Assembly (NCBI RefSeq): GCF_000181795.1
Contig: NW_003526944.1
Span: forward strand, 4,076,934-4,124,586
Direction: 5' to 3'
Source of the DNA: Trichinella spiralis
Taxonomy: Eukaryota
DNA: 47,653 nt
The translations under genes were made by a program, and so were the position numbers. Below, in pieces: positions 1 through 23,900 of this stretch. The notes under the pieces were generated by a model. That model did no database searches and was not told where the DNA came from. It saw only the letters and a program-made list of their open reading frames with translations. Within the stretch, counting starts at the first letter, position 1; the number at the start of each line of letters is the position of its first letter.

Positions 1-220
1 CTTGAGTGTCAGCGATCCACCGTAGGAGGAAGTGTTGGTGTGCGCGTGACCCCGGATTGGTCGGGTGTGAATCGATCGGCTTTGTATTGCGTGTGCGCGT
101 GTTGTATTCTGTCGATAGTGTTATTGTTTGCGAATATTAGTCTTGAACGGGTAAAACGTTTCCCGGAAACTTGGCACCAAACTTTGATTTTGTTCTCGCC
201 GAGCATTAAAATTAATTACA
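1..220 (+). repeat. 5' LTR (partial)
   Basis: Reads identical to 3970-4189. Ends in CA and contains ATTAAA, a polyA-like signal. Confidence 0.95.
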
Positions 221-233
221 AGCTATCGCGGCC

Positions 234-1019
234 ATGGGTAGCGGAAATGGGGTTGACAAGTCGCTTGACTTGCGGTTGATCCCTGAGTTCGACGGATCGC
301 CCCAGCAATCAGTGGTGGAGTGGCTGGAGAAGCTGGAGCTGGTGTGCAAGCTCCGTGACATCAGTGATGTAGCCAGTGTGATCCCGCTACGTCTGACGGG
401 CGGTGCATTCGCCGTGTACCTGCAGCTGAACGCCAAGGAAAGGTCAAGCGTAGACAAGGTCAAGGAAGCGTTGCTGGCCGCCTTTGCGGCTGACCCATTC
501 GTGGCCTACGACCAGTTCGTCTCGAGAAAGCTGGGTCCCGACGAATCGCCTGATGTATTCCTGGCGGAGCTGAAAAGACTAGCGACGTTGTTTGGTGGGG
601 TTTCCGAGAAGGCCCTGGCGTGCGCCTTCGTCGCCGGCCTGCCAGAGAACGTCCGCCAGCTGCTCAGGGCGGGATCGCGAATGGAGGATCTCGGGCTGAG
701 CCAGATCCTTACCCGCGCCCGAGCCATAATCACCGATGAACGACCCGTGGACGCGCCGAACGCGTGCTTGAGTGCCCGGGGGCCCGGAGTGCGGAGTCCG
801 ACGGTGCCGACCGGACAAAGGTGCTTCGAGTGCGGCGGACCGAACCATTTCGCCAGAGATTGTCTGGCCCGACGACAGGGCGGCGACCCGGGTACGCAGA
901 ACCCGCTGACTCGCAACCGACGTGGACGCCGCCGGGGCGTCGCCAGCGCCGCTTCCCATCAGGGAAACGAGCTCGGGACAGAGGCATCAGCGCCAGCCTT
1001 TTGTCCCCGCGACCACTGA
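234..1019 (+). CDS. gag: Gag (capsid-like region plus CCHC zinc knuckle)
   Basis: 261-aa ORF with LIPEFDG near the N-terminus and the zinc knuckle CFECGGPNHFARDC. Confidence 0.93.
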   Translation: MGSGNGVDKSLDLRLIPEFDGSPQQSVVEWLEKLELVCKLRDISDVASVIPLRLTGGAFAVYLQLNAKERSSVDKVKEALLAAFAADPFVAYDQFVSRKLGPDESPDVFLAELKRLATLFGGVSEKALACAFVAGLPENVRQLLRAGSRMEDLGLSQILTRARAIITDERPVDAPNACLSARGPGVRSPTVPTGQRCFECGGPNHFARDCLARRQGGDPGTQNPLTRNRRGRRRGVASAASHQGNELGTEASAPAFCPRDH

Positions 1020-1030
1020 CCGAGGCGCTG
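962..1030 (+). promoter_or_regulatory. -1 ribosomal frameshift signal: slippery heptamer plus H-type pseudoknot
   Basis: G GGA AAC at 962-968 in the gag frame, then a 6-nt spacer. Stem 1 pairs 975-985 with 996-1007. Stem 2 pairs CAGCGCC 988-994 with GGCGCTG 1024-1030. Pol lies in the -1 frame. Confidence 0.88.
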
Positions 1031-3886
1031 CCCGCCGTCTATATGAACGTCGGCGGCGTACGACGCCGCGTGCTGGTGGACACGGGGTGCTCAGTGTGTG
1101 TGGCCCATGCCTCGTGTTGCCGAAGCTGGCGAAAAGAGGACGTCGCCATCACCACGATGTGTGGTCGGGCAATGGGGTGCGAGGGCACCGGCGTCGTGCA
1201 GCTAAAGCCCCGTGGGAGAGGTCCAATTGAGGTTGAAGTGATAGTGGTCCGATCGAAGCCGCTCGGCTACGACCTCATACTCGGCATGAACGGCATAGCG
1301 GCGCTCGGCGGCGTGACGGTCACCGGCAGACGATGCGTGCAGTTTGGACTGGACGACCCGGGAGTCTGCGCAGCCGCCGAAGCCGGGATCAGTATCCGTG
1401 AAAAAGATTTCACAGCGACATACTGTCCCTCCACGCGCTCATGGACCGCCGCGTGGAAATGGTCAGACGCCGGGGAGCCCGGCGTCCTGCGAAATACAGT
1501 GGAAGAGTACCCGCCGGCGAACGTTGCACGTGGCGCGTATGAAGACGAGCTCAGGAAGTGGATCAAAGACGGGTGGCTCGTGCCGTACGACGAGAGCAAA
1601 CACGGCCCTCCCAAAGGGTTGCTGCCACTGATGGCAGTGATCCAGCGAAACAAGAAGAAGGTCAGGCCCGTGATGGACTTCCGGGAGCTGAACGCCCACA
1701 TTGAGAGCCACACTGCCGACGCGGACGTGTGCAGCCAAAAGCTACGCGAGTGGCGCAGACAGGGGGTCAACGTGGCCCTGATCGACCTGAAAAAGGCCTA
1801 CCTGCAGATCCGCATCGACAAATCCCTGTGGCCATATCAGACGGTGGTCTTCAAAGGCAAGCGTTACTGCCTGACCCGACTGGGATTCGGCCTGAATGTC
1901 GCACCATTGGTGATGAAAGCCGTGCTGAACTGCGTGCTCTCCCGGGATCCGGATGTCAGGAAAGGAACCTCGGCGTACATCGACGACATCCTGGTGAACG
2001 AAAGCGTCGTCGCTGTGGACCGCGTGAAGCGACACCTGGCGCACTATGGACTGACGTGCAAAACCCACGAGCGTGCCGCTGACGGAGCCCGCCTCCTTGG
2101 ACTGAAGGTCTGGGGGGAGCGAGGGAAGCTGATGTGGAGGCGAGACAACGACGTGGGCGAGGTGCCAGACGTGTTGACCCGTCGCTCTGTGTTTTCGTAC
2201 TGCGGAAAGCTGGTTAGCCACTTCCCGGTTTGCGGATGGCTGAGGATAGCGGCGGCGTACATCAAAAGAAAGGCCAACGACGCCACAACGAGCTGGGATG
2301 AGGTGATCGACGGAGACGAGCTGAGAGAGCTGATCCAGGAGACCGCGTTGGCGGTGAAGAAGCGTGACCCTGCGCGCGGGAGATGGGATGTTTCGGCGGA
2401 GGAAGCCAAAATTTGGGTAGACGCCAGCTCGCTGGCGATCGGCGTAGCGCTGGAAGTCGGCGGCTCGATCGTGGAAGACGCGGCGTGGCTGCGCCCGGAT
2501 GACGCCCAACACATAAACATGGCTGAGCTGGATGCCGTCATCAAAGGCCTCAATCTGGCCCTTAGCTGGCAGATGAGGAGGATTCGACTGATGACAGACT
2601 CCGCGACGGTGCATCGATGGGTGTCAGACGGCCTCTCCGGAAAAGCCAGGCTGAAGACGAAAGCGTCAGGTGAGATGTTGATCCGAAGAAGGGTGGGCAT
2701 GATTCTATCGCTGGTGGAGGAGTTTGGATTAGAGCTGGAAGTCGACCTGGTGAAGTCCGCGTGCAACAAGGCAGACGAATTAACCCGCGTGCCGCGGCGT
2801 TGGCTGAAGCCACCCGCAGCTGGACCGGCGCTCGTCTGTGCAGCGACCGCGGATCAGGGCGTGGAGCGAATGATCGCGGATGTCCATCATGCCATGGGCC
2901 ACCCGGGAATAAGACGAACGCTGTACTTCGCGAGGCGGACGGATCCGACAGTATCCAAGCGCCAGGTGCGACAGGTGATCAGCGGCTGCGAGCCATGCAA
3001 GTCGCTGGATCCGGCGCCTGGAAAGTGGAAACGAGGAAGTCTCGAGGTTGCGGAGGTATGGCAAAGGGTTGGAATGGACGTCACCCATGTCAGAGGCCGA
3101 CCGTACCTGACCCTCATCGACTGCGGACCGTCGCGGTTTGCTGTCTGGCGACGCTTGAGAGTTCAGTGCAGTGCGAACGTCACTGAGCAGCTGGAGGCGG
3201 TGTTCTACGAACGGGGGGCCCCGGAAGAGTTGCTGACGGACAACGACACCGCTTTCCGAGGAAGAATCTTTACGGAGTTCGTCGCCCGGTGGGGAGTTCG
3301 AGTGCGGTACCGATGTGCCTACGCGCCGTCCGGCAATGGCATAGCGGAGAGATGCCATCGAAGCGTGAAGGTCATCGCTGCGAGAAAGAATTGCTCGGTG
3401 GAAGAGGCGGTGTACTTGTATAACGTTACGCCACGAGACGGCCGCAACCCGTGGACAGCCCCGGCCAACGTCGTGCATGCATACGCCGTTAGGGTGCGGG
3501 GTGTGGACCGGGCAACAGAAGAACCTGAAGAAAAGAACGGACGGTTCGCTGTCGGCGACTCGGTATGGGTGAGGCCGCCCGGAGCCAGATGTGACACCCG
3601 ACACCAGAAAGGCACCGTGACTGGCGTTGTCTCTGACCAGGCAGTGGAGGTCGACGGGATGCCGCGACACGTCAGAGACCTTCGGCGCAGAACGCCGTCC
3701 GTGAGCGCTGCAAGCGACTTCTCTGAGCAGACCGCCGGCGAAGAAGAAGAGATGATCATCCACCTTCGCCCGCGAGACGCCGCGGATGTGGATCAGTCTG
3801 CGGAACCAGCACCGGAGCCCGCCTCTGCCGGACCCAGGCGCTCGACGAGAATTCGCAAGCCCACCGCGCGCCTGTGTTGTGATTAG
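962..3886 (+). CDS. pol: Pol polyprotein (protease, reverse transcriptase, RNase H, integrase), entered by -1 frameshift
   Basis: Protease LVDTGCS; RT LKKAYLQ, LGFGL and YIDD; RNase H WVDASS, AEL, TDS and NKAD; integrase HHCC (HHAMGHPG...CEPC) and D,D(35)E-type residues GMDVT, LLTDND, NGIAER. No internal stops. Confidence 0.96.
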   Translation, partial: GKRARDRGISASLLSPRPLTEALPAVYMNVGGVRRRVLVDTGCSVCVAHASCCRSWRKEDVAITTMCGRAMGCEGTGVVQLKPRGRGPIEVEVIVVRSKPLGYDLILGMNGIAALGGVTVTGRRCVQFGLDDPGVCAAAEAGISIREKDFTATYCPSTRSWTAAWKWSDAGEPGVLRNTVEEYPPANVARGAYEDELRKWIKDGWLVPYDESKHGPPKGLLPLMAVIQRNKKKVRPVMDFRELNAHIESHTADADVCSQKLREWRRQGVNVALIDLKKAYLQIRIDKSLWPYQTVVFKGKRYCLTRLGFGLNVAPLVMKAVLNCVLSRDPDVRKGTSAYIDDILVNESVVAVDRVKRHLAHYGLTCKTHERAADGARLLGLKVWGERGKLMWRRDNDVGEVPDVLTRRSVFSYCGKLVSHFPVCGWLRIAAAYIKRKANDATTSWDEVIDGDELRELIQETALAVKKRDPARGRWDVSAEEAKIWVDASSLAIGVALEVGGSIVEDAAWLRPDDAQHINMAELDAVIKGLNLALSWQMRRIRLMTDSATVHRWVSDGLSGKARLKTKASGEMLIRRRVGMILSLVEEFGLELEVDLVKSACNKADELTRVPRRWLKPPAAGPALVCAATADQGVERMIADVHHAMGHPGIRRTLYFARRTDPTVSKRQVRQVISGCEPCKSLDPAPGKWKRGSLEVAEVWQRVGMDVTHVRGRPYLTLIDCGPSRFAVWRRLRVQCSANVTEQLEAVFYERGAPEELLTDNDTAFRGRIFTEFVARWGVRVRYRCAYAPSGNGIAERCHRSVKVIAARKNCSVEEAVYLYNVTPRDGRNPWTAPANVVHAYAVRVRGVDRATEEPEEKNGRFAVGDSVWVRPPGARCDTRHQKGTVTGVVSDQAVEVDGMPRHVRDLRRRTPSVSAASDFSEQTAGEEEEMIIHLRPRDAADVDQSAEPAPEPASAGPRRSTRIRKPTARLCCD

Positions 3887-3901
3887 GATATCAGGGGGGA
3901 G

Positions 3902-4189
3902 TGTGTTGTGATGGCCGTTTTGGGGATGACGCAAGAATGCGTCATGGCGACGTCACCGGAGCGCTAGAACTTGAGTGTCAGCGATCCACCGTAGGAGGAA
4001 GTGTTGGTGTGCGCGTGACCCCGGATTGGTCGGGTGTGAATCGATCGGCTTTGTATTGCGTGTGCGCGTGTTGTATTCTGTCGATAGTGTTATTGTTTGC
4101 GAATATTAGTCTTGAACGGGTAAAACGTTTCCCGGAAACTTGGCACCAAACTTTGATTTTGTTCTCGCCGAGCATTAAAATTAATTACA
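3902..4189 (+). repeat. 3' LTR (~287 bp, TG...CA)
   Basis: Follows the PPT. Starts TGT at 3902 or 3904 and ends ACA at 4189, after which the sequence turns abruptly AT-rich. Confidence 0.93.
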
Positions 4190-4645
4190 AATTGCAGCAA
4201 TTAATTTGAATAGTTTCACTTATATTTTATTTCTAAATGATTCACTGATTAAAAAAATAGAAAGTATAAAAAATAAATAATAATTCTACTTCGGAAGAGA
4301 TATTATACTTTTTAGGTTCATTTTCACCTGTTTTTTATTCACATTTATATAATACAGTACATATATTTATTTGAACTTGCATATTATTAATTGGATGCGT
4401 GCATTCTGTTGCGAACACCTGGAAATATTAACTGATTTTTTCAGCCGCTTTGAGTGAAGTAAGTTTTTATCAATATAAGTTGTTAAATCACGAAATGTAA
4501 TCCTTAAATTGCGCAGTTTCAAAGTTCAGTCATTGTGATAATAATGATTTTTTGTCAATAATAACTTTAAAGCATTGAAAATTTCCTTTAAATATTACAG
4601 TTTCATCATAAATGCTTATGTGATTGTGTTGATTTCTGTTTCAGA

Positions 4646-4809: not shown

Positions 4810-5466
4810 AAAGAACGGCCGTTCGCCGTCGGCGACTCGGTATGGGTGAGGCCGCCCGGACCCAGATGTGACACCCGACACCAGAAAGGCACCGTGACTG
4901 GCGTTGTCTCTGACCAGGCAGTGGAGGTCGACGGGATGCCGCGACACGTCAGAGACCTTCGGCGCAGAACGCCGTCCGTGAGCGCTGCAAGCGACTTCTC
5001 TGAGCAGACCGCCGGCGAAGAAGAAGAGATGATCATCCACCTTCGCCCGCGAGACGCCGCGGATGTGGATCAGTCTGCGGAACCAGCACCGGAGCCCGCC
5101 TCTGCCGGACCCAGGCGCTCGACGAGAATTCGCAAGCCCACCGCGCGCCTGTGTTGTGATTAGGATATCAGGGGGGAGTGTGTTGTGATGGCCGTTTTGG
5201 GGATGACGCAAGAATGCGTCATGGCGACGTCACCGGAGCGCTAGAACTTGAGTGTGAGCGATCCACCGTAGGAGGCAGTGTTGGTGTGCGCGTGACCCCG
5301 GATTGGTCGGGTGTGAATCGATCGGCTTTGTATTGCGTGTGCGCGTGTTGTATTCTGTCGATAGTGTTATTGTTTGCGAATATTAGTCTTGAACGAGCAA
5401 AACGTTTCCCGGAAACTTGGCACCAAACTTTGATTTTGTTCTCGCCGAGCATTAAAATTAATTACA
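4810..5466 (+). mobile_element. Second copy of the same Gypsy element: pol 3' end, PPT and 3' LTR (5179-5466)
   Basis: Near-identical to ~3531-4189, with a few substitutions (about 4 in the LTR, e.g. GTGTGAGCG vs GTGTCAGCG and GAACGAGCAA vs GAACGGGTAA). Different downstream flank (CTATT vs AATTG). Confidence 0.93.
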
Positions 5467-5626
5467 CTATTCTAGCAAATTTATAGTAATTAATTAAAAT
5501 ATTCAGTATACCTGTGTATTTTCAAACAAAGCAATCAATGTATTTTTAGGAATACAGAATTGCACAAGAAATACACTTATCCTTCTTGCGATAGTAGTTA
5601 CGAACTATACGCAATAATGCAGCAGA

Positions 5627-5707
5627 TGATTGACATGCTATGGGTGCAACTCTAGTCATGAATTACCATCTATTAGTACCAGATATGCACCCACAGCCCA
5701 GCAATCA
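5627..5707 (-). ncRNA. miR-279/miR-44-family microRNA precursor; predicted 3p mature UGACUAGAGUUGCACCCAUAGC (5637-5658)
   Basis: Inverted repeat GCTATGGGTGCAACTCTAGT / TACCAGATATGCACCCACAGC with lower stem TGATTG/CAATCA. The minus-strand 3' arm begins with the family signature UGACUAGA. Confidence 0.8.
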
Positions 5708-5716
5708 CTTTTTGAT

Positions 5717-7710
5717 GTGCAGAATGCATCCTCACACTGAGTAGATAAAATGGTAGGGTGCTTTCTCAAACTGAATGACCGTTCCACTTTATCTTGCCAG
5801 AGTAAAGAGCTGAGGGTGGTTCATCGTGCGAAAGTGCAGAAAGGATCCCCACACTGAGTAGATAAAATGGTCTGGTACTTTCTCAAACTGAATGACCGTT
5901 CCACTTTATCTTGCCAGGGTGAAGAGCTGAGGGTGGTTCTTCGTGGGAAAGTGCAGAAAGGATCTTCACACTGAGTAGATAAAATGGTCTGGTACTTTCT
6001 CAAACTGAATGACCGTTCCACTTTATCTCGCCAGGGTGAAGAGTTGAGGGTGGTTCTTCGTGCGAAAGTGCAGAAAGGATCTCCACACTGAGTAGATAAA
6101 ATGGTGTGGTACTTTCTCAAACTGAACGACCGCTCCACTTTATCTTGCCAGGGTGAAGAGCTGAAGGTGGTTCTTCGTGGGAAAGTGCAGAAAGGATCTC
6201 CACACTGAGTAGATAAAATGGTGTGGTACTTTCTCAAACTGAATGACCGTTCCACTTTATCTCGCCAGGGTGAAGAGTTGAGGGTGGTTCATCGTGCGAA
6301 AGTGCAGAAAGGATCTCCACACTGAGTAGATAAAATGGTGTGTACTTTTCTCAAACTGAATGACCGTTCCACTTTTATCTGGTCAGGGTGAAGAGCTGAG
6401 GGGTTTTCGTGCGCCGTGCAGAAAGAATCTCCACACTGAGTAGATAAAATGGTGTGGGACTTTCTCAAACTGAGTGAGCGCTCCACTTTATCTTGCCAGA
6501 GAGAAGAAGTGGGTTGTTCTTCATGTAGGAATGCAGAAAGGCATCCCCATACTGAGAACATGAAATGGACCGGTGGTTTTCTTATATCTGTATGACCGTT
6601 ACAATTTTATCTTGGCAGGGATGAANNNNNNNNNNNNNNNNNNNNNNNNNNNNNNNNNNNNNNNNNNNNNNNNNNNNNNNNNNNNNNNNNNNNNNNNNNN
6701 NNNNNNNNNNNNNNNNNNNNNNNNNNNNNNNNNNNNNNNNNNNNNNNNNNNNNNNNNNNNNNNNNNNNNNNNNNNNNNNNNNNNNNNNNNNNNNNNNNNN
6801 NNNNNNNNNNNNNNNNNNNNNNNNNNNNNNNNNNNNNNNNNNNNNNNNNNNNNNNNNNNNNNNNNNNNNNNNNNNNNNNNNNNNNNNNNNNNNNNNNNNN
6901 NNNNNNNGAATGACCGTTTCATTTTATCCTATCAGGGTGAAGAGCTGAGGGTGGTTGTGTGGCAGTGTAGAAAGCATCCTCACACTGATAAGATAAAATG
7001 ATCCGGTGATTTCTCAAACTGAATGACCGTTCCATTTTATCCTACCAGGGTGCAGGGTCCAGGATGTGTAGAAAGCATCCTCACACTGAGAAGATAAAAT
7101 GATCCGGTGATTTCTCAAACTGAATGACCGTTTCATTTTATCCTATCAGGGTGAAGAGCTGAGGGTGGTTGTGTGGCAGTGTAGAAAGCATCCTCACACT
7201 GATAAGATAAAATGGACCGGTGATTTCTCAAACTGAATGACCGTTCCACTTTATCCTACCAGGGTGAAGGGTCTAGGTGTGTAGAAAGCATCCTCACACT
7301 GAGAAGATGAAATGATCCGGTGATTTCTCAAACTGAATAACCGTTCCACTTCATCTTGCCAGGGTGAAGAGCTGAGGGTGGTTCTTCGTAGAGCAGTGTA
7401 GAAAGCATCCTCACACTGAGAAGATAAAATGATCCGGTGATTTCTCAAACTGAATGACCGTTCCATTTTATCTTACCAGGGTGAAGAGCTGAGGTTGGTA
7501 CTGTGTGGCAGTGTAGAAAGCATCCCCACACTGAGAAGATAAAATGATCCGGTGATTTCTCAAACTGAATGACCGTTCCATTTTATCTTGCCAGGGTGAA
7601 GGGTCTAGGATGTGTAGAAAGCATCCCCACACTGAGAAGATAAAATGGACCGGTGATTTCTCAAACTGAATAACCGTTCCATTTCATCTTGGCAGGGTGA
7701 AGAGCTGAGG
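5717..7710 (-). ncRNA. Tandem array of at least 15 pre-miRNA-like hairpins derived from the miR-35/36 family (units 100-117 bp; N-gap 6626-6907)
   Basis: Each unit has a ~32-bp imperfect stem, e.g. CACACTGAGAAGATAAAATGGACCGGTGATTT / GAATGACCGTTCCATTTTATCTTGCCAGGGTG, with a ~9-nt loop. The minus-strand 3' arms of the seven complete right-hand copies start UCACCGG (5' ends at 7009, 7110, 7223, 7323, 7440, 7555, 7656). Confidence 0.75.
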
Positions 7711-7716
7711 AGCACG

Positions 7717-7775
7717 CAGGTTTAATATGGACCAGTGATTCTTCGTACTCGGAACCACTAGGCTATATTAACCTG
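7717..7775 (-). ncRNA. miRNA precursor, miR-36/miR-3-like seed variant; predicted mature UCACUGGUCCAUAUUAAACCUG (7717-7738)
   Basis: Hairpin CAGGTTTAATATGGACCAGTGATTC / GAACCACTAGGCTATATTAACCTG. Intermediate in sequence between the array unit and the UCACCGGG hairpin. Confidence 0.68.
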
Positions 7776-7799
7776 GATGTTACGTCGAGACTGGGGAGG

Positions 7800-7886
7800 A
7801 GTCCTCAGTCAGATAAGCTTAATATGGCCCGGTGATTTTCCAATAACAAAATGACCAAGTCACATTAAGCCTTCTGAGAGAGGACT
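7800..7886 (-). ncRNA. miR-35/36-family precursor; predicted mature UCACCGGGCCAUAUUAAGCUUA (7814-7835)
   Basis: Hairpin GCTTAATATGGCCCGGTGATTTT / AAAATGACCAAGTCACATTAAGC with basal stem AGTCCTC/GAGGACT. Canonical UCACCGGG 5' end on the 3p arm, as in miR-35-42. Confidence 0.82.
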
Positions 7887-8841
7887 GAGTTTTCTTCGAA
7901 AATGACCGTTTATATAGAAGTGGAAAACAATGAACGTGAATTGTATTGGTCCACTAGAACAATGGAAACTCGGGATATTCGAATTAAGGGTCACAAATAA
8001 ATGGACATTATTGGACAATATTAGGTCATTGGCAATACCATAATAGCTAATTTGTGCACTGGGTTAGGTCAAGGGTCAACCCTCAGACTAAAAAAATTTT
8101 TTGTAAATGTCAATATCTGCATGCACTGTGTTTTTTTGGAATATATTTTTCATGAAAAAAACGGTGTGGAATATTAATTTAATTTTTAAATGTGCAAAAC
8201 AAATCTATTATGGCATGTGTATTTCATAATTATTGCAATTCCTATGCAGTGACGTAATTGTACATTTTTACAGAACAAAAATATTGCAAAATTCGAAGTG
8301 CGGGTGAAGTAATCTCAACATAAAATTAAAAATTTTAATAAGTTTTTGAAGCATGTACATCGCCAATGGTTGCAGTTGCAACGAATACGTTTAAATTCAT
8401 CTCTTGTAAAAAAATAATTCTCTTTTCGTTAAGGATTTTTGTATTATGGAAAGATGTTGGAATGTGAGAATAAATTAGTATGAAGATTGTTTTAATCCCG
8501 TGAGTTGCAACACTTTTTGCTTTTAATTCTTTCGTATAATAATCAATTCTTGGTGTTATACAGATACATTGCAATTTTCCTGAAATTGTCGTCATTTAGC
8601 CGCGTGTAAATTCTCATTTCTGCACAGTTGGGCAAATATTGCTTTTCTTCGATTTTTATGAAAGTTTAATTTTTTTGCTACCTGAAACTTTCTTTCACAT
8701 TTGCATAACTTATTAGTTTGTTTTTATTGTTGTTGTTTTTGTTATTATTTATGTAAACGTACGATTTTTTACAACAGAACCCGCATATATATTTATTTCA
8801 TTCTTATGCTACACATATTCACATGCACATACAGAAAAATA

Positions 8842-9297
8842 TTATCTTTGAAGAATTAAATGCCTTGTTCTGCTGTCGATCATATTTTCAATAGGATCCC
8901 AAACACCATAAGCTTGCACCAACGCGTTTTGATTATTCACTGCTCCCATGTAATTTCTCTGGGCGTTTGCATATCCAAAATTGCTGTCTGAAATTGCAAG
9001 ACGACGAACGGCTAAAATAACATTATTATTATTATTATTTAAAAAAATACAATCAAATGTTGTACTATCTTTCATACCACTTTCAACCATCTGTTCTACC
9101 ATGGTGTTTAAAGCAGCATTACGTCCAATAGCACTGAATGCATTGTCAGTTGGATTTTGACCGTAGGAAGAATATTGACCAGGATTATACAACGGATTGG
9201 CAATTACAGGTCTCGGCATAAGCCGAGCATCAACATTAAAAACATAAAATAACACCATAACAAATATACATAGTTTATCAGTTCTGACTGCTCGCAT
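8842..9297 (-). CDS. Small secreted protein of unknown function (2 exons; intron 9012-9077)
   Basis: Hydrophobic N-terminus MRAVRTDKLCIFVMVLFYVFNVDA. 66-nt GTATGA...TTTTAG intron. TATAAAA about 45 nt upstream (9339-9345). Confidence 0.75.
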   Translation of the reverse strand: MRAVRTDKLCIFVMVLFYVFNVDARLMPRPVIANPLYNPGQYSSYGQNPTDNAFSAIGRNAALNTMVEQMVESGMKDSTTFDCIFLNNNNNNVILAVRRLAISDSNFGYANAQRNYMGAVNNQNALVQAYGVWDPIENMIDSRTRHLILQR

Positions 9298-11992
9298 CTG
9301 CAAATCTTTGGGTGTACTATTTTTCTACAGCAATATACTTTTATAGATAAATTTTGTGGGACAAGTCCAATTTATTTACTATTTCAGCAGAAAAAGTTTC
9401 CTTGTCTTCGTTGCTGTTATTCTTCATTACATTTGAAATATATCAGCTGTATATCGTGCACATTGCACCGGCTCATTTGCTATCCGGTCTTGTCGGCATG
9501 CCACAAGTTACTAATGACTGACTTCTTTGTCACTGTCACGTGTCCACAAATACGTGCAAATTTTTGTAAGCAATTCACATATTGTCAGCAATAAAAAGAA
9601 ATATTTTCAAAAATACATTTCTAGTTAAAAACTGTTTGCATAGCAGATATTGAACTTAATTTTTTATTTTATTCTTTTAATATGCATATGTTCGGCAATC
9701 AATTCTGCAAAATCGTAATTAGAATCTATATTCTGTTGATTGAGTTGAGTATTTGCAAATGCACGACATCTGTCAAAATTTGTATGAGTAATTGTTATTA
9801 TAATCAAAGGAATCTTTCTTATTAGGAAACAATTCTTAGCAAAATTTAACTTCAGCAACATTTGTAATTTATATATAGGTGTATATGAGTTGTCAAAAAA
9901 TTTTCAATTTGCACGTGCAATCAGTATATTGTTTTAATTCAATATGTTCACCTCTTTGATAGGTGATAAGGAAGATTTATTGTTCATGAATGCGTTAATA
10001 ATTTATGTATCACCCACAAAAGCTTGTTTGCTGCAACAATATTTCATGAAGTTGACCTCCTGATTTATGATAAAACCATATTTTAAAACTAGCTGGTTTT
10101 ACAAATAAAATTTCCTTGATGATATTTATTTATATGGACTAATCGATTTTATGTTAACAATTCTAATTAGTAAAATTTTTTAAATTGGTCATTCCAAATT
10201 TTACAAATGCGAACTTTTTTCAAGTAATTGTGGTAGTACTATTTTAATTGAATTTCTTAAAATTGCATTATCATTATATTTTCATATATATATATATATA
10301 TAATTAAAAATTAGTTTAAAGTTAATACAACTCAATAATTAATATATAATCTTATTTCTCATAAATGATAATCATCAGTAAAAAGATGTTTTACGTTTTA
10401 TGTAATTTGATGTAATATTACACGTTTAGATTTAGCATATGAGTAATAGGTAAGAGAGGTAACTTTATACTACATATTTTGAAATGCTTTTAATATTAAT
10501 GAATCTAATACACATTGCATTATTAAAGCAGTAGCTGTTTTCATTAAAAATAATTTTAATATCTAAAAAGCTAAAAATTTCAGGTTAAGGAAAAAGATTT
10601 TCTGGAAAAAGTTTTACGCAAGGCAATTAAAGTTAGCTGGATGATATTTGCCCAAACGTAGCTAATATGTGCATAACCTAATTTCATCACTGTCAGCTAA
10701 CATTTGATTATCTCAGCAGGGGTTATGGTGCTCGCCTATTTTTTTTATATTCCTTTAGTTATTACTATCAGCATTTGAGGCCAGGATATGTCAATCAGTT
10801 TCTTTGTATTAAAGCCGCATGATTCAGATAACCGATTGTTGACCCAATCACATGACTGTGTAATGACATATTATTTTTCTTACTTCTTTAATGGACGTAA
10901 AGGTCAGCTTCAGTCTGATTAAAGACAATGTAAAGATTTGAACTGAATATAATAATCTTTTCATCATGAATGATGCGTCTTTTTATCATCGGTTTTTCAT
11001 CTTCTTGATAACCTGGCTTGTTTACTACACCTTACAAATACACTTAATACACAATAATAGTAAAATTTTTTTTTTAATTTGCTTGAATTTCAATTTTCTG
11101 TAAATTACACTGCATTATGTCCAAAGTCCAATAATAAAGCATAGATAAAATGTTACAAAAACTAACAGTTTATTTTATTATGCAATAAATTTGCAGCAAC
11201 TGTTAAATAAACTGTTTATTAGTTTTGATTGACCGTCTTGACGGAAAAGTTCTAAGCATTTGCTTGAATCTAAATAACCCTGCATTGCATCAGAAATCAG
11301 TCTTACTGGTACAGTGAATGCTATTTTTTGAAACAAATGCAAAAACAATGTTCGATTTAATTTAAGCAGTTTTTGTGAATAGTTGAATCTACATATAAAG
11401 CATAATTATGAACATTATTGTATATCGTAATGATGCGTGAGTGAAAATGCAACCAGTATTATTAAATTGCCAAAGTTTTGTTACAAAATATCTCAACATT
11501 AACATAAATTAACATTTTAAGAGGAATGACTTTCTCTCTTGCAAACATTTGAAGTTTAATGTATGATTTCAAAATTATTCAAAATTTTTTCAGTTATAGC
11601 AAAACATTTGTTTAAATTTTAAATGAACTGAAATACGTTGTTTGCGCATAAAGTAGTAAGGTTTGTGCTTTCAAATATTAATTATCGGAATTTATCAATG
11701 TTCTGCCTTTATTTGATGCATGTTATATAACTTAAAACAAAATTTTTAAAGATACTTCAACATGAAACAACTCTGAGAACATTTCTCCATCAGAAAAGCT
11801 CCATAAGAAATATTGCGTACTGTACTTGAATTAAATAATAGCATTACTACTTGAAAATTATAATTCTACCGAAGTATAAAAAAATAAATTCTTGATATAA
11901 AATTAGCTTCATTACTTCTGTTCCAATGTATTTAATATTATTCTAATTCAGATAATATAAATAAATATAAATTTTCAATCGTTGGTGAAACA

Positions 11993-14900
11993 ATGCAGAA
12001 TACAGAGTGTTCCAATGAAGATACGATGGACGCCTTTGATGAGGAAGATTATTTAGAATTTCTGAGTACTGAAACTTCAGATATGGTTTCAGATTTAATT
12101 AATGAATATAGTCGGGTAAAAGTATCTGACAATAGTGCAGAAAGAATGTCGGATATTGATGAGGACGTTAACGACACAAGCAGCGAAGGTAACTTTTTAG
12201 TTTTATGAAAAAGAATTTTGTATAAATAAAACATAATTATCTTGAAGCATTAAAGTATGTTTTAATAGTTTATTTTTTTGAGATGATGTAACTCCTGATG
12301 ATGATTCAGATGAAGATTACATGTCAGAAACTGCATATCAATCAAAAAGGCGCAAAAAGAAGAAAACTGTTCGTCGCAGAAAATTAAAAGTTAGTATTTT
12401 TATAAGATTCTGTAAAGATGTATAAAATGTTGCTCTCTGAGTTTTATACGTACAAAAGTTCTTTTCATTTATATGTTACTTCATGTATTTCCAGTGTGAT
12501 TTATCTGTTTATGATTGAATTTAGAATACCAGAGGGAAAAAGACATCGAAATCAACAACAGTTCAACAGCCGAAAGCAAAATACTATAGGCGGCATCTTC
12601 CTGAACAATTGCAGTCTATTTTGGGTCATGCTTCTCTTTGTTTTGCAAACGGAGAGGTTAAAAAAGCTATAACTCTTTGCAAAGATGTGATTCGAGAAAG
12701 TGAATAATAAAAATTTAATTTTTATAAACAATTGTATGGAATTTGAATTGAGCATAATTTAGGACCTAAGCTGCACGATGCTTATGAATTGCTATCTGTT
12801 TTTTATGGCGATCTTGGGAACCGCACGAAGTGTTTTCATCATGCAATGGCTGCTGCTATGTTGAATAGGGCAACTGATGCTTCTCGGTGGAAAGAATTAG
12901 CCGAAACTGCTACTGATCTTGGATTTTATTCTCAGGCTGTACTTTGTCTTAAAAATGGTAAATGGATTTGTTATCAAATGAAAGAAAATTTTAAATTGAT
13001 TTGACATTTTGTTTGCGTAGCTATAAATTTGGAACCAATGAATTGGGCATTGTACGATGCGAAGAACAAAGTACATGCTTTATTGCAAGAACCGAGAAAA
13101 GTTTTGGAAACTGAATTAGCTGCTGTAAAAGGGATGCTAAATTCCGAAGAAATGACATACGATCACTATTTGCAGTATACGGAAAGCATTTATAGGGTTG
13201 TTAATTCGAATCTTCTATGGATGGCAGTCAATATTATTTAATTTTAAATAATATTTTCTAATTTCTTTTTAGAAATGTAAAGCAGAAAATGATCAGAAAG
13301 GAGCTCAATTATGTTTGAAGTATTATCTCCTCAGGTTGAAATCTGCCGGCAAAATTTGCTACGAGAAGCTGAACAATTACATTGTAATGTTGATAGCTGC
13401 AAAGGAATTTGAAAATATAATAAACGTAAGATTTTGTTTTGCTAGTTTTTAAATTCTCAAGTATTTTAATTGTGTATTCTTTTATAATTGGTGAATATTA
13501 GCCTTTTTGAGTACATGTTTGAATAGCAGCTATTTTTATAGTTAAAATTGTTACTTTATACTATTTTTCACTTTTATTTAATATGAAATATATTATCCTT
13601 GAAGAATAGTGTGATGTGCTTTTAATTTCATGATAAAATCTGTTGGATCGAATTGTCCGTATGCTCTGAGTAGAGATGTCGCTTCTGGATGGAGCAGCAA
13701 CTGATTTGGAAATTGCGGATTTGTATGAAACATGTGCTGCAAACCTAAAACAAAAAAAAGAACAAATATATAATCAGTTTTTCATTTGGAGGATAGGAAA
13801 GCTCACCGTTCATAGACACTGTTTGCAATGAGGCTTCATATGCGGGATTGTGCATCGAAGCAGGCAAAACGTTCGTGGGTAAGACAAATGAAGGGAATGT
13901 GGGGTTGATCTGGTAATAATCTGCCGACATTAATTGACGTATTCTTCGAATTGGAGTTGCTAAAATGTTGAATTGAACAAAACTTATTCTTTTGCATTAT
14001 TCATTGTTCATTCATTCACCTTACCCAAGCATGGATATGTGTACAGAAACAATATGCTGAAGAAAAAATGTAGTAACATTGAAGAAGGCAGCGTTTGGAA
14101 AATTGCAAAATGTTTGTTAGCATAATGCACTTTTCTATACATATATTATTTCTTAGACTGGTAAATAGGCATTGTTGTTAAATTGGTTGACAGTTATTCA
14201 TTTATCAGATTTGCAAAGCTACTTTTGAGATGAAATTTGAAAATACATTTTGACATGATATGTTGAAACGTTACAATTTTGCTGACTAAATTCAAGGATA
14301 AATAAATTTATGAATTTTTAATGAAAATAATAAATAAATATATATATATATATTTCGTTGATGATTTATTAAATTAAATTCATATAGTTTGTTTTTTATT
14401 CAAAGGCAGTGCATGAATTTAGTCCTTTGAAAATGTTTCTACGGAAATGCGAAGTGAAAAATTTCGAAATTGGTAAAGTGAAATCGATAACAGTTGACAG
14501 GTTTGTAGAAGATGGGATTTTGAACAGGCTTAAAAATTTTATTTAATTTTTGTATTTCATTATAGAGTTGACATCCCTGATGACTTTTCCCCTGAAATAC
14601 TCGCCAGAGTAATTTTGGCCTGGCTGAATCTCAAACATTACAACAATGCTTTGGTTGAACTTAACAATAATATTTTGAGTGGTTTTTATTCATCTGAAAA
14701 TGTTGTTTTTCCAGGTTTTCCTCCAGTGCTTGGAAGATCATTATCCTATGTCGATGAAATACCGCGATGCTTACCTGCTTGTAATGGACACGTATTTTTT
14801 TGTGCATCATTACTCGCAAGCTGTAGAAATTGCCGAACGTTTAGTTCAAGTTTGTGGTCCAGTATGCGAAACAAACAGCACATACGCGTGGCAATTTTAA

Positions 14901-16618
14901 TAATTTCATTTTCCTTTCAGGATGATGTAGAAGTTCAGTTGAAATATGCTGATTTTTTGATAGCGATCAATGAAACAAACCAAGCTTTAGAAATTTACGA
15001 GCGTACAATGGAAAAGCAACCGACACAGCCTTTGGCTAGGCTCAAATTGGCCACGTTGCTGCAAAAGCTTGGCCGAGTGGAAGAAGCTATGGAAGTGTTG
15101 GAATTGTTCGACAAGAGAGGCGTGGATGAGCTGGGTGCTTTGGTAATTTAAAAATTTTTCCATTGTCGGCATTTATGTATGTATTAATTTGATATTTATT
15201 TAGGATGCAGAGTTGCTTTATGAACAGTGTCAAATTTTGGGAAGAAAGCAGCTCTGGTCACAATATTTCATTTCCGGTAAACATCTCATGGCCATGTATT
15301 TCAAAGAGATACAAAGTCAGAAATGTTTCGCGCGTATGCATAATCAATTTATTGTTTGCTGATAAGCTTATTTGTTTGTCATGAAATGTACAACTGTGCT
15401 TGTTTAGAAATACGCAATTCGTATATATCTCGTTCGGCAAATTTTCGCACGTGTGTACTGAATACAGTTGCTAATTCACCATTGAAGAAATTAGTTAATC
15501 GAGTTCCTGAGGTGGGAAAGTTTGCAAAAAAATTAATAACTGGAAAACAACTTTGGGGTGTATTCGACAAGGTAAGCTGTTTTGAATGGAGCGAGTGTTT
15601 TTTTTTTTGGTTTCCATATTATGTGCAATTTCCAGCTTTGTGATATTTGCATTGAAAATGAACAGTATGAGGAATTGTTGCATTTGACTGCATTTGCCTC
15701 GCAAAGCATGATGTTGCTCAAAGCTGGTTACTTGAAAAAAATTGATAGCCGGCTTTTATTGGCTGCTGTGCAGTGTCGAAATGTTAATGTAATATGGAAT
15801 GTATTTCGTTATTGTGTGGCAGTTGTTGATGAAAATTATTATTGGAATCTTCTTGGTATTTTTTTAATTGTATATATTAAATAATTGATTAATTTTATTT
15901 TGTACAATGTGCAGGTATGATTTTTACTATGACGCAGGATGTGTGCTCTAATCGATACATTTTGCGTCAGATTGCTTTATCCCCAGATTGTGTACCCTTA
16001 GCTTGGATAAACGGCAACAATTCATTAGTAGCTGGCTCGCATCAGCATGCATTAGGTATAAAGTAAAAGGCAATTTATTTTCAACTGCTGACTAATAGTA
16101 TTTATTTTCTTTTTATTAGTGGAGTATTTTTACGTTCAACTTTCTCATCCAGACATTCCGTTGATTAATTTACTCGAGGGTCTTTCACTGCTTCATATGG
16201 GTAGTCGTCGGTTGATGTTACGTGCCCAAGATTGTTCAATTCAAGTAAGTTTATTATAAAAAAATTATTCTCTTTTTATTTTCACCATTATTAGCATTAA
16301 CTGTATTCTGAATTCTAGGCTTTAGCTGTACTTTCAAGATATAAATGCTTGCGTGGAGATTGTCAAGAAGTTTATTATAATTTCGGTCGTGCCATGCAAC
16401 AGCTGGGCATAATTCACCTGGCTATTTGTTATTACCGCAAAGTTTTGCAAATGGAACCAGAAGTGAAAATGACCAACAATACAAATGAAGGGGAATACTT
16501 TTTGTCGAATCCATTTGATCTGAGACCTCTGGCAGCTTTCAACTTGTCCGTAATTTACTTCCAAAGTGGAAATGAAATGGCCGCTTTATCGCTTTACAAT
16601 AAATATCTAGTCATTTAA
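11993..16618 (+). CDS. GTF3C3: General transcription factor IIIC subunit 3 (TFIIIC102/Tfc4), multi-exon TPR protein
   Basis: Acidic N-terminus; exons LPEQLQSILGHASLCFANGEVKKAITLCKDVIRE and DASRWKELAE; C-terminal RGDCQEVYYNFGRAMQQLGIIHLAICYYRKVL...DLRPLAAFNLSVIYFQSGN, which is characteristic of this family. Confidence 0.92.
13593..14079 (-). CDS. Nested antisense gene in a GTF3C3 intron: 119-aa secreted prepropeptide-like protein (exons 14079-14025, 13959-13807, 13744-13593)
   Basis: Spliced ORF MLLHFFFSILFLYTYPCLA-TPIRRIRQ-LMSADYYQINP...HHTILQG*. Two phase-1 introns (GTAAGG..TTTTAG, 65 nt; GTGAGC..TTTTAG, 62 nt) keep the frame. Total 360 nt. Confidence 0.8.
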
Positions 16619-20195: not shown

Positions 20196-20927
20196 TTAAC
20201 ATTTCTTACTTGGAACCCAGCACTGACCATGCTTACAGCCGCTATATACACCTCCAGAGCATTCCAAATTTGAATAACACGTATCGGCAGTTTTGACTCC
20301 TTTAACACAAGCATTCATTAAGCAAATGAAATCATTATCACAAGCGTAATGGTCGACGCATTGTTTTCCTTTTGGTCGCTGAAAGCCTTGTGGACTTGGT
20401 GCACCCATTGGCATCATTGGCATTGAAGTCATCGGATGCATCATAGGCATTTGTGGCATCCAATACTGATTCATGTAATTAGGAAAGCCCCATCCATAAT
20501 TTGAAGGATAACCGGAATACATTGGCCTGGGATAATAGCCAACCATATCTACCTGTATATCGGGCACTGGAATTGACTGCATAGATTAAATAACGGATAA
20601 AAGTCGTTTATTCAATTATCACTAACTTATAATCATCCAACATTCTTCATATTTGCAGCCGAATATACCATAACCACAGTCGTCGTTCATTGTACATTTC
20701 CGCCCAGTTTTTGTGGCCGGGTAACATCTGGATTCATAGCACAGTGCACCGGGAAGCATGCAACTGTAGTGATCAACACAGGTTTGAGGATTTTCATTTT
20801 CAACAGCTAATTTTGAATGTAAATTAGAAATTAAATTGAAAATTAAAAAGCAATTCCTACTTTGAAAAATGCTATTCAGAAATAAAAGTTGAAGATATAA
20901 AATGCTGTTTGCATATTTTATATTCAT
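20196..20927 (-). CDS. Probably secreted Cys-rich protein: two 8-Cys modules separated by a Pro/Met/Tyr-rich linker
   Basis: Modules CVDHYSC...GCKYEECW and CVDHYAC...GCKHGQCW lie in adjacent ORFs joined by a likely intron; its acceptor is uncertain. Moderately hydrophobic first exon. Confidence 0.78.
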
Positions 20928-23900
20928 TATTTTATGAAAGATAAAAACTGATGCGCGTTTGAAATCAGTCTATAAGAAACTACAACGTCATGGTAATTGT
21001 AAATTGAATCTGTGAAAACGAATCGACAGTTTGTTTTGACGTTCAGATTTTAGCAGATTTAATTTCAAATTCAGCTTGGCCGTTATGTAATAATAAACAA
21101 TACAGGGATAGTAGCTGAATAAATACAGGCAGTTTAAATTTTCGACCACAGATAGTGTTTCATATTGTGTATTGAAATTTAAATGCAGTTCTATTGCAAT
21201 TGTTTAAAAAAAAACTTCAAACAGATTTTCTTTTGCATTCAGAACTACTTTTTTATAAAGTAATTTGAATGAAAATTTTGCATATATTTAAAAAATCAAT
21301 TATTATTTTATAATCGCTTTGTAGAATGATGTTTTATCAATAAAATAAAATTTTACCGATTGAAAAATCATTTCTTATTTAATATTTAAAGTAAAATTTA
21401 ATCAAACAATTTCAAAACGTTCAATTTATCAATTGAAAGTTTAATTTTAATAAAACTTGATTTTTTAAGTCTTACTGTATTAATTGCAAGATGAATATTT
21501 TAGTTTGAAATGAAATATGGTAAAACGGTTCTAAATGGAAAAGAAAATGAATTAGTAACTAACAAGGTAAGTTCATATTTGTTAGTATATTCAGTATGTA
21601 TCAAAGCTTAAAATTTTGATATGTGTTTATTTAACTTTATTTGAGTTTTTACGAAAATTAAAAAATGTAATTATATGTTTCATTAATATTATTTAAATTT
21701 TCTTGTTTGATTGCATCATTTTATATTATTATTGAAATTGAAATATTTTTTGGTTGCTTTGTGCAATTTTTTTGATAATTTTAATGCATTTTCATATGTG
21801 GTGTATGAAATAAAATTAAGAAAAACTAACATTTCATCAACATAAATTGCGTTAAATATCACTGACATATGTAAACGTAGAGGTTATTTGAATTGCTATT
21901 ATTGTGAATAAGGTAATGCACGTTATGATAGAGATGTTCAATTATTGATTTTATTCGAAAGTTGTTTACATTTGTAACGTTGAGCTTTTGGTTATTAGCT
22001 GTGAGTGTTGTGTTTTAATTGCATTTTTCGTAAAACAAATTTTCAACATGTTTGGTCAAACATATTAAAACAGCATCGGAAGAATATTTTTTTATATAAT
22101 TCGAATTTTTTTGTTGATTGGCTATTTATTCCATTGTCAGGCTTTGAATTTGACGTAATCCAGACACGACACCCTAGATAACGTTCAAGTTAGCAGTCAA
22201 CTGATAATTAATTGTATAAAATGAGATTTAGTCAGTGTACAATAATAATAATAATAATTCTTGATGAGCTTCAGTGAATTTTTCTGCTGTTATTTGTATT
22301 TCATTTTACAGTAACGTTTCAGTAATAATAATACATTTTTTTGAATAATTTTTATCTTTGCTTGGTTGATTTGAGAACGCTCCGATAATGATGAGCATGT
22401 TTGAAATGAATGATTACTTTTGTTTCATCTCATCATCTTGGTTTGTCTAGTTTGCATGTGCTAAATGAATATGCGTGACCTTTGCTTGTCATTTTTGAGA
22501 AGAAGACGACAATTCGTGTATGTGTGTTTGTAAAACTTGAAGGTCACAGTTTTAATATGTTGACGGCAAGTTTCGTTTGTCTAAAAGCCGGATCAGCTCT
22601 AGTTGATAAGCGGAAATTGACGTTGAAACTTTTCATTTTCAAAATTCCCCAAACAAGATCAAACAGTAAATCAATTTGCATTTGCATAATTTAACTTCAG
22701 TATGCTGACCGTTGAAGCATAGAAATTGAGAAAAACAAAAGAGCTGCTTATTTATCATTATTATTATATATATTGGCTCATGTTTTAGCATTTTTCGAGT
22801 GCCGCCCTGTGCCAATTTTGTGTCAGTTCTACATCGGCATTGTTGCACACGGTCATGTCAAGCAAGATGTGCATTTTCCTGTAGAAAGTAAGGTAATTAT
22901 TAAAAAAATAAATAATTAATATTTTTAAATGTTATGAATAGTTAGTTGGTGGTTCAGTTCATAAAGAAAAGTCACTAATTGGATTATTGATCGTCGCTCG
23001 ATTTGCGCTATTCACACTGGCTAGACGTGCAAAGTTCCATGTCAGATATTTGTCGACGTCGACGAACTGCAATTTTCAAGATGGAAAAGTAAGTTGTTAT
23101 GAATTTAATCAAATTTTTTTTAAATATGCATGCATATTTCTTAAAAAGTAATATGTGGTGAAACATGCGTGTGAATTTCCTTTCTGAAATTTCATATCAT
23201 TACGTGAGTATATTCGATACATTTTCATAATTTGCCTGTTGCAGATCAATTTTCCCCAATTTCTTTCATGGCTCATTTTAATGCTTCTGTTTTATATGCG
23301 TTCTTTCAAACGTGACAAATTTTTTTGCACCTATAATGAGAAAGTTATTAAACAGGAAAATTTGTGTTGCGCTTGGTTGTTCGAATTCAAATTATTTCAA
23401 ATGTTCAAATTGAACTGTTTGAAATATTGAACTTCTTTTCTTTAATTTATTGCAGAGAAATGATGTGAAATACGCCATGTTTTTTCACAACAGTTTCGTT
23501 ACAGTTTTCAAAGTTTGCATAAATGAAATTTAGGTCATTAACCAAATTTTCTTTTGAACTTTTCCAATGTTCATCTTGTAGTAGCTTTGATTTGTTTTAT
23601 TTTTTGCAATATCATAAATGTTAGAGAAAGTTATTTGTTTAATTTAAAATTTTTAAATACATATTTTGATATTCAGATTTAATAGTTGTTTGTTTTGGCT
23701 TTTTCAAAGTTTTATTTTCCATTGATTTTGTTGCACTTCACTGTTTCTGGAGGAAAATGAATAGGTGGACAGATTTTTTAAATCTAATTTTAGAATAGAA
23801 TAAATTTTCACTAACTCAATTGTACTATTCGAAGAGAATAATAATTATAATTGATGCTGATTTGAAAAGAAAAGAATGAAATGAAAGTGACGTTTCTGCT

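Follow-up and report, generated by a model that had tools for sequence, protein, structure and literature searches.

What is the tandem repeat of roughly 100-bp units that runs along the minus strand of a 47,653-nucleotide stretch of Trichinella spiralis DNA (RefSeq assembly GCF_000181795.1, contig NW_003526944.1, positions 4,076,934 to 4,124,586; the whole stretch is referred to below as the window)? A first-pass annotation, made from the sequence alone, had proposed a tandemly amplified cluster of microRNA hairpins with miR-36 and miR-279 seeds. The analysis described here favours, with a probability of about 0.7, a T. spiralis microRNA cluster in which the middle hairpin has been tandemly amplified and from which at least three small RNAs have been sequenced, and which likely forms one transcript supplying miR-36-seed microRNAs to the germline or to the embryos carried in the female.

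Layout and folding of the array

Read 5' to 3' on the minus strand, the array comprises 18 hairpin-type units in the order H1, H2, U1-U7, assembly gap, D1-D8 and H279 (Table 1); the order and the count proposed in the first-pass annotation are borne out by the sequence and the seed positions. The UCACCGG(A/U) seeds of U1-U7 start at 7656, 7555, 7440, 7323, 7223, 7110 and 7009. In the folds, every seed of the array lies on the 3p arm, again as had been claimed, and the plus strand of positions 5550-7950 contains no match to the three seed patterns searched. Tandem Repeats Finder reported periods of 101 and 117. The spacing of 100-117 bp that had been stated for the units holds for U1-U7 (101, 115, 117, 100, 113 and 101) but not for H1-H2 (97) or H2-U1 (82). 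Some 160 bases downstream of the array lies the end of an LTR retroelement. Elsewhere in the window, an exon at 20199-20585 matched one protein cluster, from Trichinella; of 15 cluster members aligned to the window, the two from T. spiralis showed 1 and 2 differing residues, full-length proteins of other species 5-13 and a T. nativa fragment of 167 residues 3, which identifies the DNA as T. spiralis.

Table 1. Array units and flanking elements, with positions counted from the first base of the window.
Feature	Position	Strand	Remarks
TATA-box-like TATATAA	7910..7916	-	30 bases upstream of initiator-like TCAGTC; predicted core promoter
Initiator-like TCAGTC	7883..7888	-	predicted start at 7886, base of H1
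H1 hairpin	7800..7886	-	predicted 3p mature 7835-7814, full miR-36 seed UCACCGGG; -43.5 kcal/mol, z -8.3
H2 hairpin	7713..7779	-	predicted 3p mature 7738-7717, seed UCACUGG; z -2.8
U1-U7, tandem pri-miRNA units	6969..7708	-	period 100-117; UCACCGG(A/U) 3p matures; GHG at +3..+5; CNNC at +18
Partial U-type unit	6908..6948	-	from sequence; 5' arm only, interrupted by the gap
Assembly gap, 282 N	6626..6907	.	more units likely inside, as hinted by depth
D1, degenerate unit	6536..6625	-	CACCGG present; no single-hairpin fold
D2-D8, seven 117-bp units	5721..6512	-	stem, GHG and CNNC retained; miR-36 seed lost; first 5p base unpaired by a fixed change
H279 hairpin	5626..5708	-	predicted 3p mature 5658-5637, miR-279/miR-44 seed UGACUAGA; z -4.2

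Fold z-scores, computed for each unit against 200 dinucleotide shuffles, ranged from -3.4 to -6.7 in U1-U7 and from -2.7 to -3.9 in D4-D8; those of H1, H2 and H279 are listed in Table 1. The folds of D2 (-2.2) and D3 (-1.7) were weak, and D1 (-0.3) formed no single hairpin. A single-hairpin test requiring at least 26 bp and at most -28 kcal/mol was passed by 14 of the 18 units and by 8 of 3135 background windows beyond position 7900, with cut-offs that were chosen after the units had been seen and with centred unit windows set against background windows stepped by 25. Inclusion of the GC-rich retroelement brings the background passes to 39 of 3568. H2 fails the energy cut-off of this test. The claim that every unit is a pri-miRNA hairpin was therefore upheld, on folding unit by unit, for the 14 strong single hairpins, and it did not hold for D1, the weakly folding D2 and D3, or H2. 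All seven U units are predicted to yield a 56-nt precursor, with 29-33 bp in all, in keeping with the single hairpin of some 55-65 nt on a basal stem that is typical of canonical animal microRNA genes.

The stem is also visible in the alignment of 16 units (H2 and H279 omitted), in which 95.0% of 416 cells are paired as compared with 45-56% for slid partners. Changes on both sides of a pair occur at 6 of 26 pairs, as compared with 1.7 in shuffles, and none of 500 shuffles reached 6, a result that is inflated by the relatedness of the copies. Of the 18 units, 14 have a GHG motif with mismatched centre at +3 to +5 and 16 have CNNC at +18, both being counts over copies that are not independent. 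The positions of the two motifs are those scanned in PMC9976908, according to which C. elegans lacks an enrichment of CNNC; in this respect the present clade I locus resembles other animals more. No Rfam family reached its gathering score anywhere in the window, and no mir-35/36 model was among the weak matches. Weak matches to mir-308, mir-127 and plant families were judged to be generic hairpin matches.

Small RNAs and transcription

Three published small RNAs tie the array to sequenced products. Tables S10 and S6 of PMC10660789, a study whose microRNA annotation derives from Sarkies et al. 2015, list Tsp miR 45 (UCACCGGAUCAUUUUAUCUUCU), Tsp miR 72 (UCACCGGUCCAUUUUAUCUUCU) and Tsp miR 77 (AGGAUAAAGUGGAACGGUCAU), each with the homologue given as 'None'. 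The three matures are identical to array products, and the tables give no genomic arrangement for them. Tsp miR 45 matches exactly the 3p arms of U2 (7555-7534), U3 (7440-7419) and U6 (7110-7089), Tsp miR 72 that of U1 (7656-7635) and Tsp miR 77 the 5p arm of U5 (7257-7237), which gives five exact sites, all of them on the minus strand. Both 3p products begin at the seed U. The 5p start in U5 deduced from fold geometry (a 22-nt 3p strand with a 2-nt overhang) is 7257, the very start of the published miR 77, which as a 21-nt 5p strand leaves 1 nt rather than 2 at the loop end. Both arms are represented among the three products, in a manner that fits the register of a 2-nt 3' overhang; the 3p and 5p products match different copies exactly, the 3p strand of U5 being one base off miR 72.

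These exact matches bear out the proposal that tandem duplication has amplified a microRNA cluster here. Predicted and published matures coincide for the 3p arms of U1, U2, U3 and U6 and for the 5p arm of U5. No product of H1, H2, H279 or the D units occurs in the 11 supplementary files of PMC10660789, in which sequences are given for enriched microRNAs only. None of six motifs was found in the supplement of PMC7300183. No description of the array arrangement itself was found in the literature outside subscription papers and some supplements, among them the list of 213 novel microRNAs of PMC3212509. The three published matures have been annotated since 2015, and their tandem arrangement is unreported as far as the literature search reaches. 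With it, three 'orphan' T. spiralis microRNAs gain a family and a locus.

Their abundance in muscle larvae is low. In the RNA pull-downs of Table S5 of PMC10660789, normalised counts were 0-2.7 for miR 45, 0-1.3 for miR 72 and 0-2.7 for miR 77, and those of the UCACCGG microRNAs 18, 21, 23, 27 and 39, which have the array seed in common and otherwise differ in sequence, were 4.5-995. The 20 novel microRNAs given as most abundant in adults, newborn larvae and muscle larvae in Table 2 of PMC3212509 include no array product; five other T. spiralis UCACCGG microRNAs in that table are adult-enriched. This absence argues against a high adult dose, unless multi-mapping reads were discarded. A preprint (bioRxiv 10.1101/2023.08.02.551739) describes tsp-miR-36 as high in adults in a text that carries no sequence, so that the statement is not attributable to this locus.

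A start of RNA polymerase II is predicted near 7886, where the TATATAA at 7916 stands 30 bases before the A of TCAGTC, a sequence like the initiator consensus, at the foot of H1. The window contains five pairings of this kind, both strands counted, and the one at the array is therefore only suggestive of a promoter. A sigma-70 promoter scan was set aside as inapplicable to a nematode. Upstream of the array lies another gene, with a minus-strand mRNA of its own; reads from it stop near 8779. In RNA run X12, a GT-AG intron of the neighbouring gene is spliced out, which indicates that spliced RNA is present; the same run gave four contigs on U-type units at depths of 2-4, one of which, 231 bases long, crosses two spacers. 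These contigs suggest that neighbouring U units are transcribed together, but the support is weak, because a multi-copy repeat is where contaminating DNA assembles easily and first. No RNA piece connects H1, H2 or H279 with the array; X12 had no coverage over these three hairpins, RNA run X21, of which 18% was read, had no reads on 7605-8756, and X16 and X17 had no contigs there, blanks that carry no evidential weight. The suggestion that the cluster is polycistronic was accordingly retained for neighbouring U units, where adjacent units on one RNA are partly shown, and this support does not extend beyond them.

That Microprocessor and Dicer release a 56-nt precursor and a 22-nt duplex with 2-nt overhangs from U units is shown by the published products, whose positions agree with the fold. 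By analogy with C. elegans miR-35-42, the 3p strands would repress mRNAs bearing CCGGUG sites in early development and would then be cleared, which would fit the near-zero counts in muscle larvae. Expression of the array in the germline or early embryo would be expected from the same comparison.

Families, history and copy number

H1 and U1-U7 carry CACCGG on the 3p arm with U at position 1, the seed of the miR-36 (miR-35-42) family. In the first-pass annotation, the family had been defined by UCACCGGG, with G at position 8, and this full motif occurs only in H1; position 8 is A or U in the U units, as it is in other T. spiralis paralogues paired with cel-miR-41 in the tables of PMC10660789. 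The first eight bases of H1 are those of Tsp miR 23, which is paired with cel-miR-36-3p in the same tables. Positions 1-7 (UCACCGG) are invariant across U1-U7, while 17 of 93 unit columns vary. The seed is absent from all seven of D2-D8, whose 3p strands start with GUCCCAC, AGUACAC, GUACCAC, GUACCAG or GCACCCU, a loss that the first-pass annotation does not mention; D1 retains CACCGG, but its first base is C. An intact miR-36 seed on a good hairpin is thus confined to H1 and U1-U7, and the description of the locus as a miR-36 cluster stands for these eight units of the present assembly rather than for about 18, D2-D8 being seedless, D1 misfolded and H2 changed in its seed.

H279 carries GACUAGA on its 3p arm, the miR-279/miR-44 seed as given in the available text of PMC4238352. 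It aligned over the full length of Rfam mir-279 (RF00754) and scored 37.2 bits (E 9.9e-05), short of the gathering score of 56. In the tables of PMC10660789, the canonical miR-279 of T. spiralis is Tsp miR 64, and because its sequence is unlike that of H279, the latter is a second copy of the family. Hairpins of the miR-36 and miR-279 families lie on one strand, at most 2.3 kb apart. The K-box (miR-2/6/43) motif TATCACA is absent from the resolved part of 5550-7950, the 282-N gap excepted.

H1, H2 and the array units can be aligned to each other, with identities of 60% between H1 and the U units, 83% between U and D units and 90-91% within groups. H1 is a diverged paralogue of the array units, and H2, in which the seed has changed, is a local paralogue of H1. 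The H2 seed, UCACUGG, is that of insect miR-3/309; convergence is the more likely cause, given the local origin of H2 beside H1. D2-D8 are descendants of miR-36 hairpins and not seed members themselves. The simplest path would be local duplication of a miR-36 hairpin and a change of seed in H2, followed by growth of the array, in which unequal crossing-over would have multiplied an H1/H2-like hairpin. The D sub-family would later have lost the seed, and its units may now be decaying or yielding other products.

A switch of the D units to a 5p product is a minor possibility. Among D2-D8, 5 of 7 columns vary in the 3p seed and 0 of 7 in the 5p seed (Fisher p 0.02, a comparison chosen post hoc), and a background in which 17 of 79 columns vary makes 0 of 7 unremarkable. 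In addition, the D-type translation reads GRIK in T. murrelli and GKIK or GEIK in T. spiralis, which suggests that the species do not all share one 5p seed. Seed-intact and seed-lost sub-families adjoin in this array, which makes it a convenient system for following how microRNAs arise and decay as repeats turn over.

The junction of D8, H279 and the flank is unchanged in DNA runs X1 and X4, which come from two studies; X15, from another species, had no coverage over H279, a blank that says nothing about its presence there. In five unit bins, the summed contig depth relative to single-copy flank was 38-74x in X1 and 15-48x in X4, values that overlapping contigs inflate and that do not equal copy number. 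At 5755-5756, seed-intact letters made up 80-86% of the contig depth in X1, 97% in X4 and 100% in X15. Together, the depth ratio and the seed-intact share hint that U copies exist beyond the seven resolved.

Two protein searches returned 15 public gene models on such repeat units (13 matches and two cluster members). Thirteen of the 15 have seed-intact translations (RNHR, EITG, KSPD), including models of T. spiralis, T. nativa, T. nelsoni, T. murrelli, T6 and T9. D-type translations were found in three, from T. spiralis and T. murrelli, so that the D sub-family is older than the split of these two species; one T. murrelli model has a D unit ahead of U units. Non-encapsulated Trichinella gave no match among 13 gene models, a weak negative, given its reliance on spurious gene calls. 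The array model and a DUF7107 gene, which lies 12 kb off in the window, have near accession numbers in T. nativa, T. nelsoni, T. murrelli and one T. spiralis assembly, and this suggests that the array locus is syntenic across them. Two records from a contig of different length may reflect a second array locus or simply another assembly of this one.

Related clusters and competing readings

According to the available text of PMC11648932, C. elegans makes miR-35-41 from one transcript and mir-42, 43 and 44 from another, and miR-35-42 are high in early embryos and drop at the L1 transition. The miR-35/36 family is embryonic, and C. elegans embryos require it (PMC11648932; PMC2486268). The Trichinella locus resembles mir-35-41 in having several 3p hairpins with a common seed in one cluster (PMC11648932; PMC2486268). 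It differs in scale, with at least 15 near-identical satellite-like units as against seven members in 796 bp, as well as in the A or U at position 8 of its U units and in its seed-lost sub-family. In Haemonchus, a parasitic nematode, the miR-5352 cluster (miR-61, 5352, 43 and 5895) is female- and egg-enriched and includes miR-61, a name of the miR-44/279 family in C. elegans (PMC2486268); however, it consists of four single hairpins in 422 bp, and no tandem amplification of units is reported for it in the available text (PMC5709059).

Linkage of a miR-36/miR-3-type hairpin to an extra miR-279-family copy is common to the Trichinella locus, C. elegans mir-42-44 and insect mir-309/3/286. In the available text of PMC4238352, insect mir-309/3 are grouped with C. 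elegans mir-36-42 and mir-286 with mir-279, expression is egg-biased, and a mite cluster of miR-279 and several miR-3 genes is described. Unlike mir-42-44 and mir-309, the resolved part of the Trichinella locus has no hairpin with a K-box seed of the miR-43/miR-6 type. The common linkage could also have arisen independently.

Vertebrate miR-430/miR-427 arrays consist of many near-identical, same-seed hairpins, are satellite-like, collapse in assemblies and are expressed at very high levels at the maternal-to-zygotic transition. The Trichinella array is similar to them in architecture and unrelated in seed. A bolder account would derive the locus from an ancestral ecdysozoan early-embryo cluster (miR-36/miR-3 with a second miR-279, common to mir-309/3/286 and mir-42-44), have the middle hairpin multiply in encapsulated Trichinella to dozens of copies, as in miR-430 arrays, and have the D units arm-switched to a new 5p microRNA as the 3p seed decayed; as a whole this is unlikely. 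The amplified cluster remains the preferred reading. As a multi-copy source of miR-36 in a live-bearing clade I parasite, it would be a candidate regulator of reproduction, considering that miR-35/36 are essential in C. elegans embryos, and the locus adds a data point on the origin of early-embryo microRNA clusters.

Several facts would suit a genuine microRNA locus that is weakly expressed and largely redundant, with a copy number that results incidentally from repeat turnover and with most units drifting to pseudogenes. Seed or fold is lost in 8 of the 15 resolved array units, the three published products are near zero in muscle larvae and outside the top 20 in three stages (PMC3212509), and T. 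spiralis possesses several abundant microRNAs that carry the miR-36 seed but otherwise differ in sequence (PMC3212509; PMC10660789). Nevertheless, the seed is invariant in U1-U7 and is also kept in gene models of five other taxa, and 80-100% of the DNA-run contig depth at 5755-5756 is seed-intact, which leaves drift of this kind a rather improbable, if serious, description of the array. It is far less probable that the locus is a satellite with fold-back units whose repeat-derived siRNAs were mis-called as microRNAs. The units are indeed satellite-like in their identity within groups, a retroelement is close by, and Dicer-type siRNAs of 23-25 nt are made from T. spiralis repeats (PMC4323106, available text); yet the three published products are of 21-22 nt, come from one strand and fall at positions predicted by the fold, and the units are homologous to H1 and H2, single-copy hairpins whose seed is conserved in animals.

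The annotated protein with a 39-residue repeat (Tsp_08403 and relatives) is barely credible. A 155-codon open frame does exist at 5821-6288, and the 15 public gene models do cover such units. However, the models combine all three minus-strand frames and skip stops, and the U spacings disrupt the frame; on these grounds the protein reading was rejected. The models have no Pfam domain, and nothing visible in their translations accounts for the SecA and helicase names that some bear. The exons of Tsp_08403 correspond letter for letter to D units, a match that is possibly not independent of the window. The expectation that the array would be annotated as a spurious protein was confirmed by Tsp_08403 and by two further models, named SecA and helicase. 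No fewer than 15 public protein records, these two among them and six Trichinella taxa represented, are apparent annotation artefacts on the repeat.

Retroelement flanking the microRNA array

The microRNA array, a run of minus-strand miR-36-family hairpin units, lies beside a Ty3/Gypsy-like LTR retroelement, the two ends of which carry mutually matching LTR sequence. The 3' end and LTR of this element occur a second time, after a 10-N gap, either as a genuine tandem repeat or because the assembly duplicated them. Approximately 160 bases separate the end of its LTR from H279, the hairpin at the downstream end of the array, and the junction between the two was found in DNA runs from two studies (X1 and X4). 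In RNA run X12, contig depth reached 1000-4500 over the LTR end at 5380-5466 (a sum across related copies), which suggests that the element family is transcribed.

Features neighbouring the array
Feature	Position	Strand	Remarks
Ty3/Gypsy-like LTR retroelement	216-4189	+	Open gag-like and pol frames; LTR match at both ends
Its gag-like open frame	216-1019	+	
Its pol open frame	740-3886	+	RT, RNase H, integrase
Repeat of its 3' end and LTR	4811-5466	+	98.8% identity to 3533-4189
Four TGACC(T/C) words	7988-8078	-	Upstream of predicted array promoter
Expressed gene	8779-9500+	-	Hydrophobic N-terminal stretch; GT-AG intron
TPR-repeat gene exons	14534-16618	+	
DUF7107 gene	20199-20969	-	

Upstream region and other genes

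The TGACC(T/C) words, two of the four forming a direct repeat with 1-base spacing, are similar to nuclear-receptor half-sites. The expressed gene, which has a 66-base intron (9012-9077) and deep RNA coverage in runs X12 and X16, gave no match in a Pfam search. Farther off lie the TPR-repeat exons and the DUF7107 gene, the latter serving as a marker for species assignment and synteny.

Related database records

Identical counts for Tsp miR 46, 47, 48 and 85 in pull-downs from muscle-larva RNA (PMC10660789, Table S5) indicate that T. spiralis has a further four-copy microRNA besides the array; its sequence was not found in those tables of that paper that were examined. Two public T. spiralis proteins, KAL1228771.1 and KAL1228764.1, named SecA and ATP-dependent helicase/nuclease subunit in the database, are translations of the array repeat.
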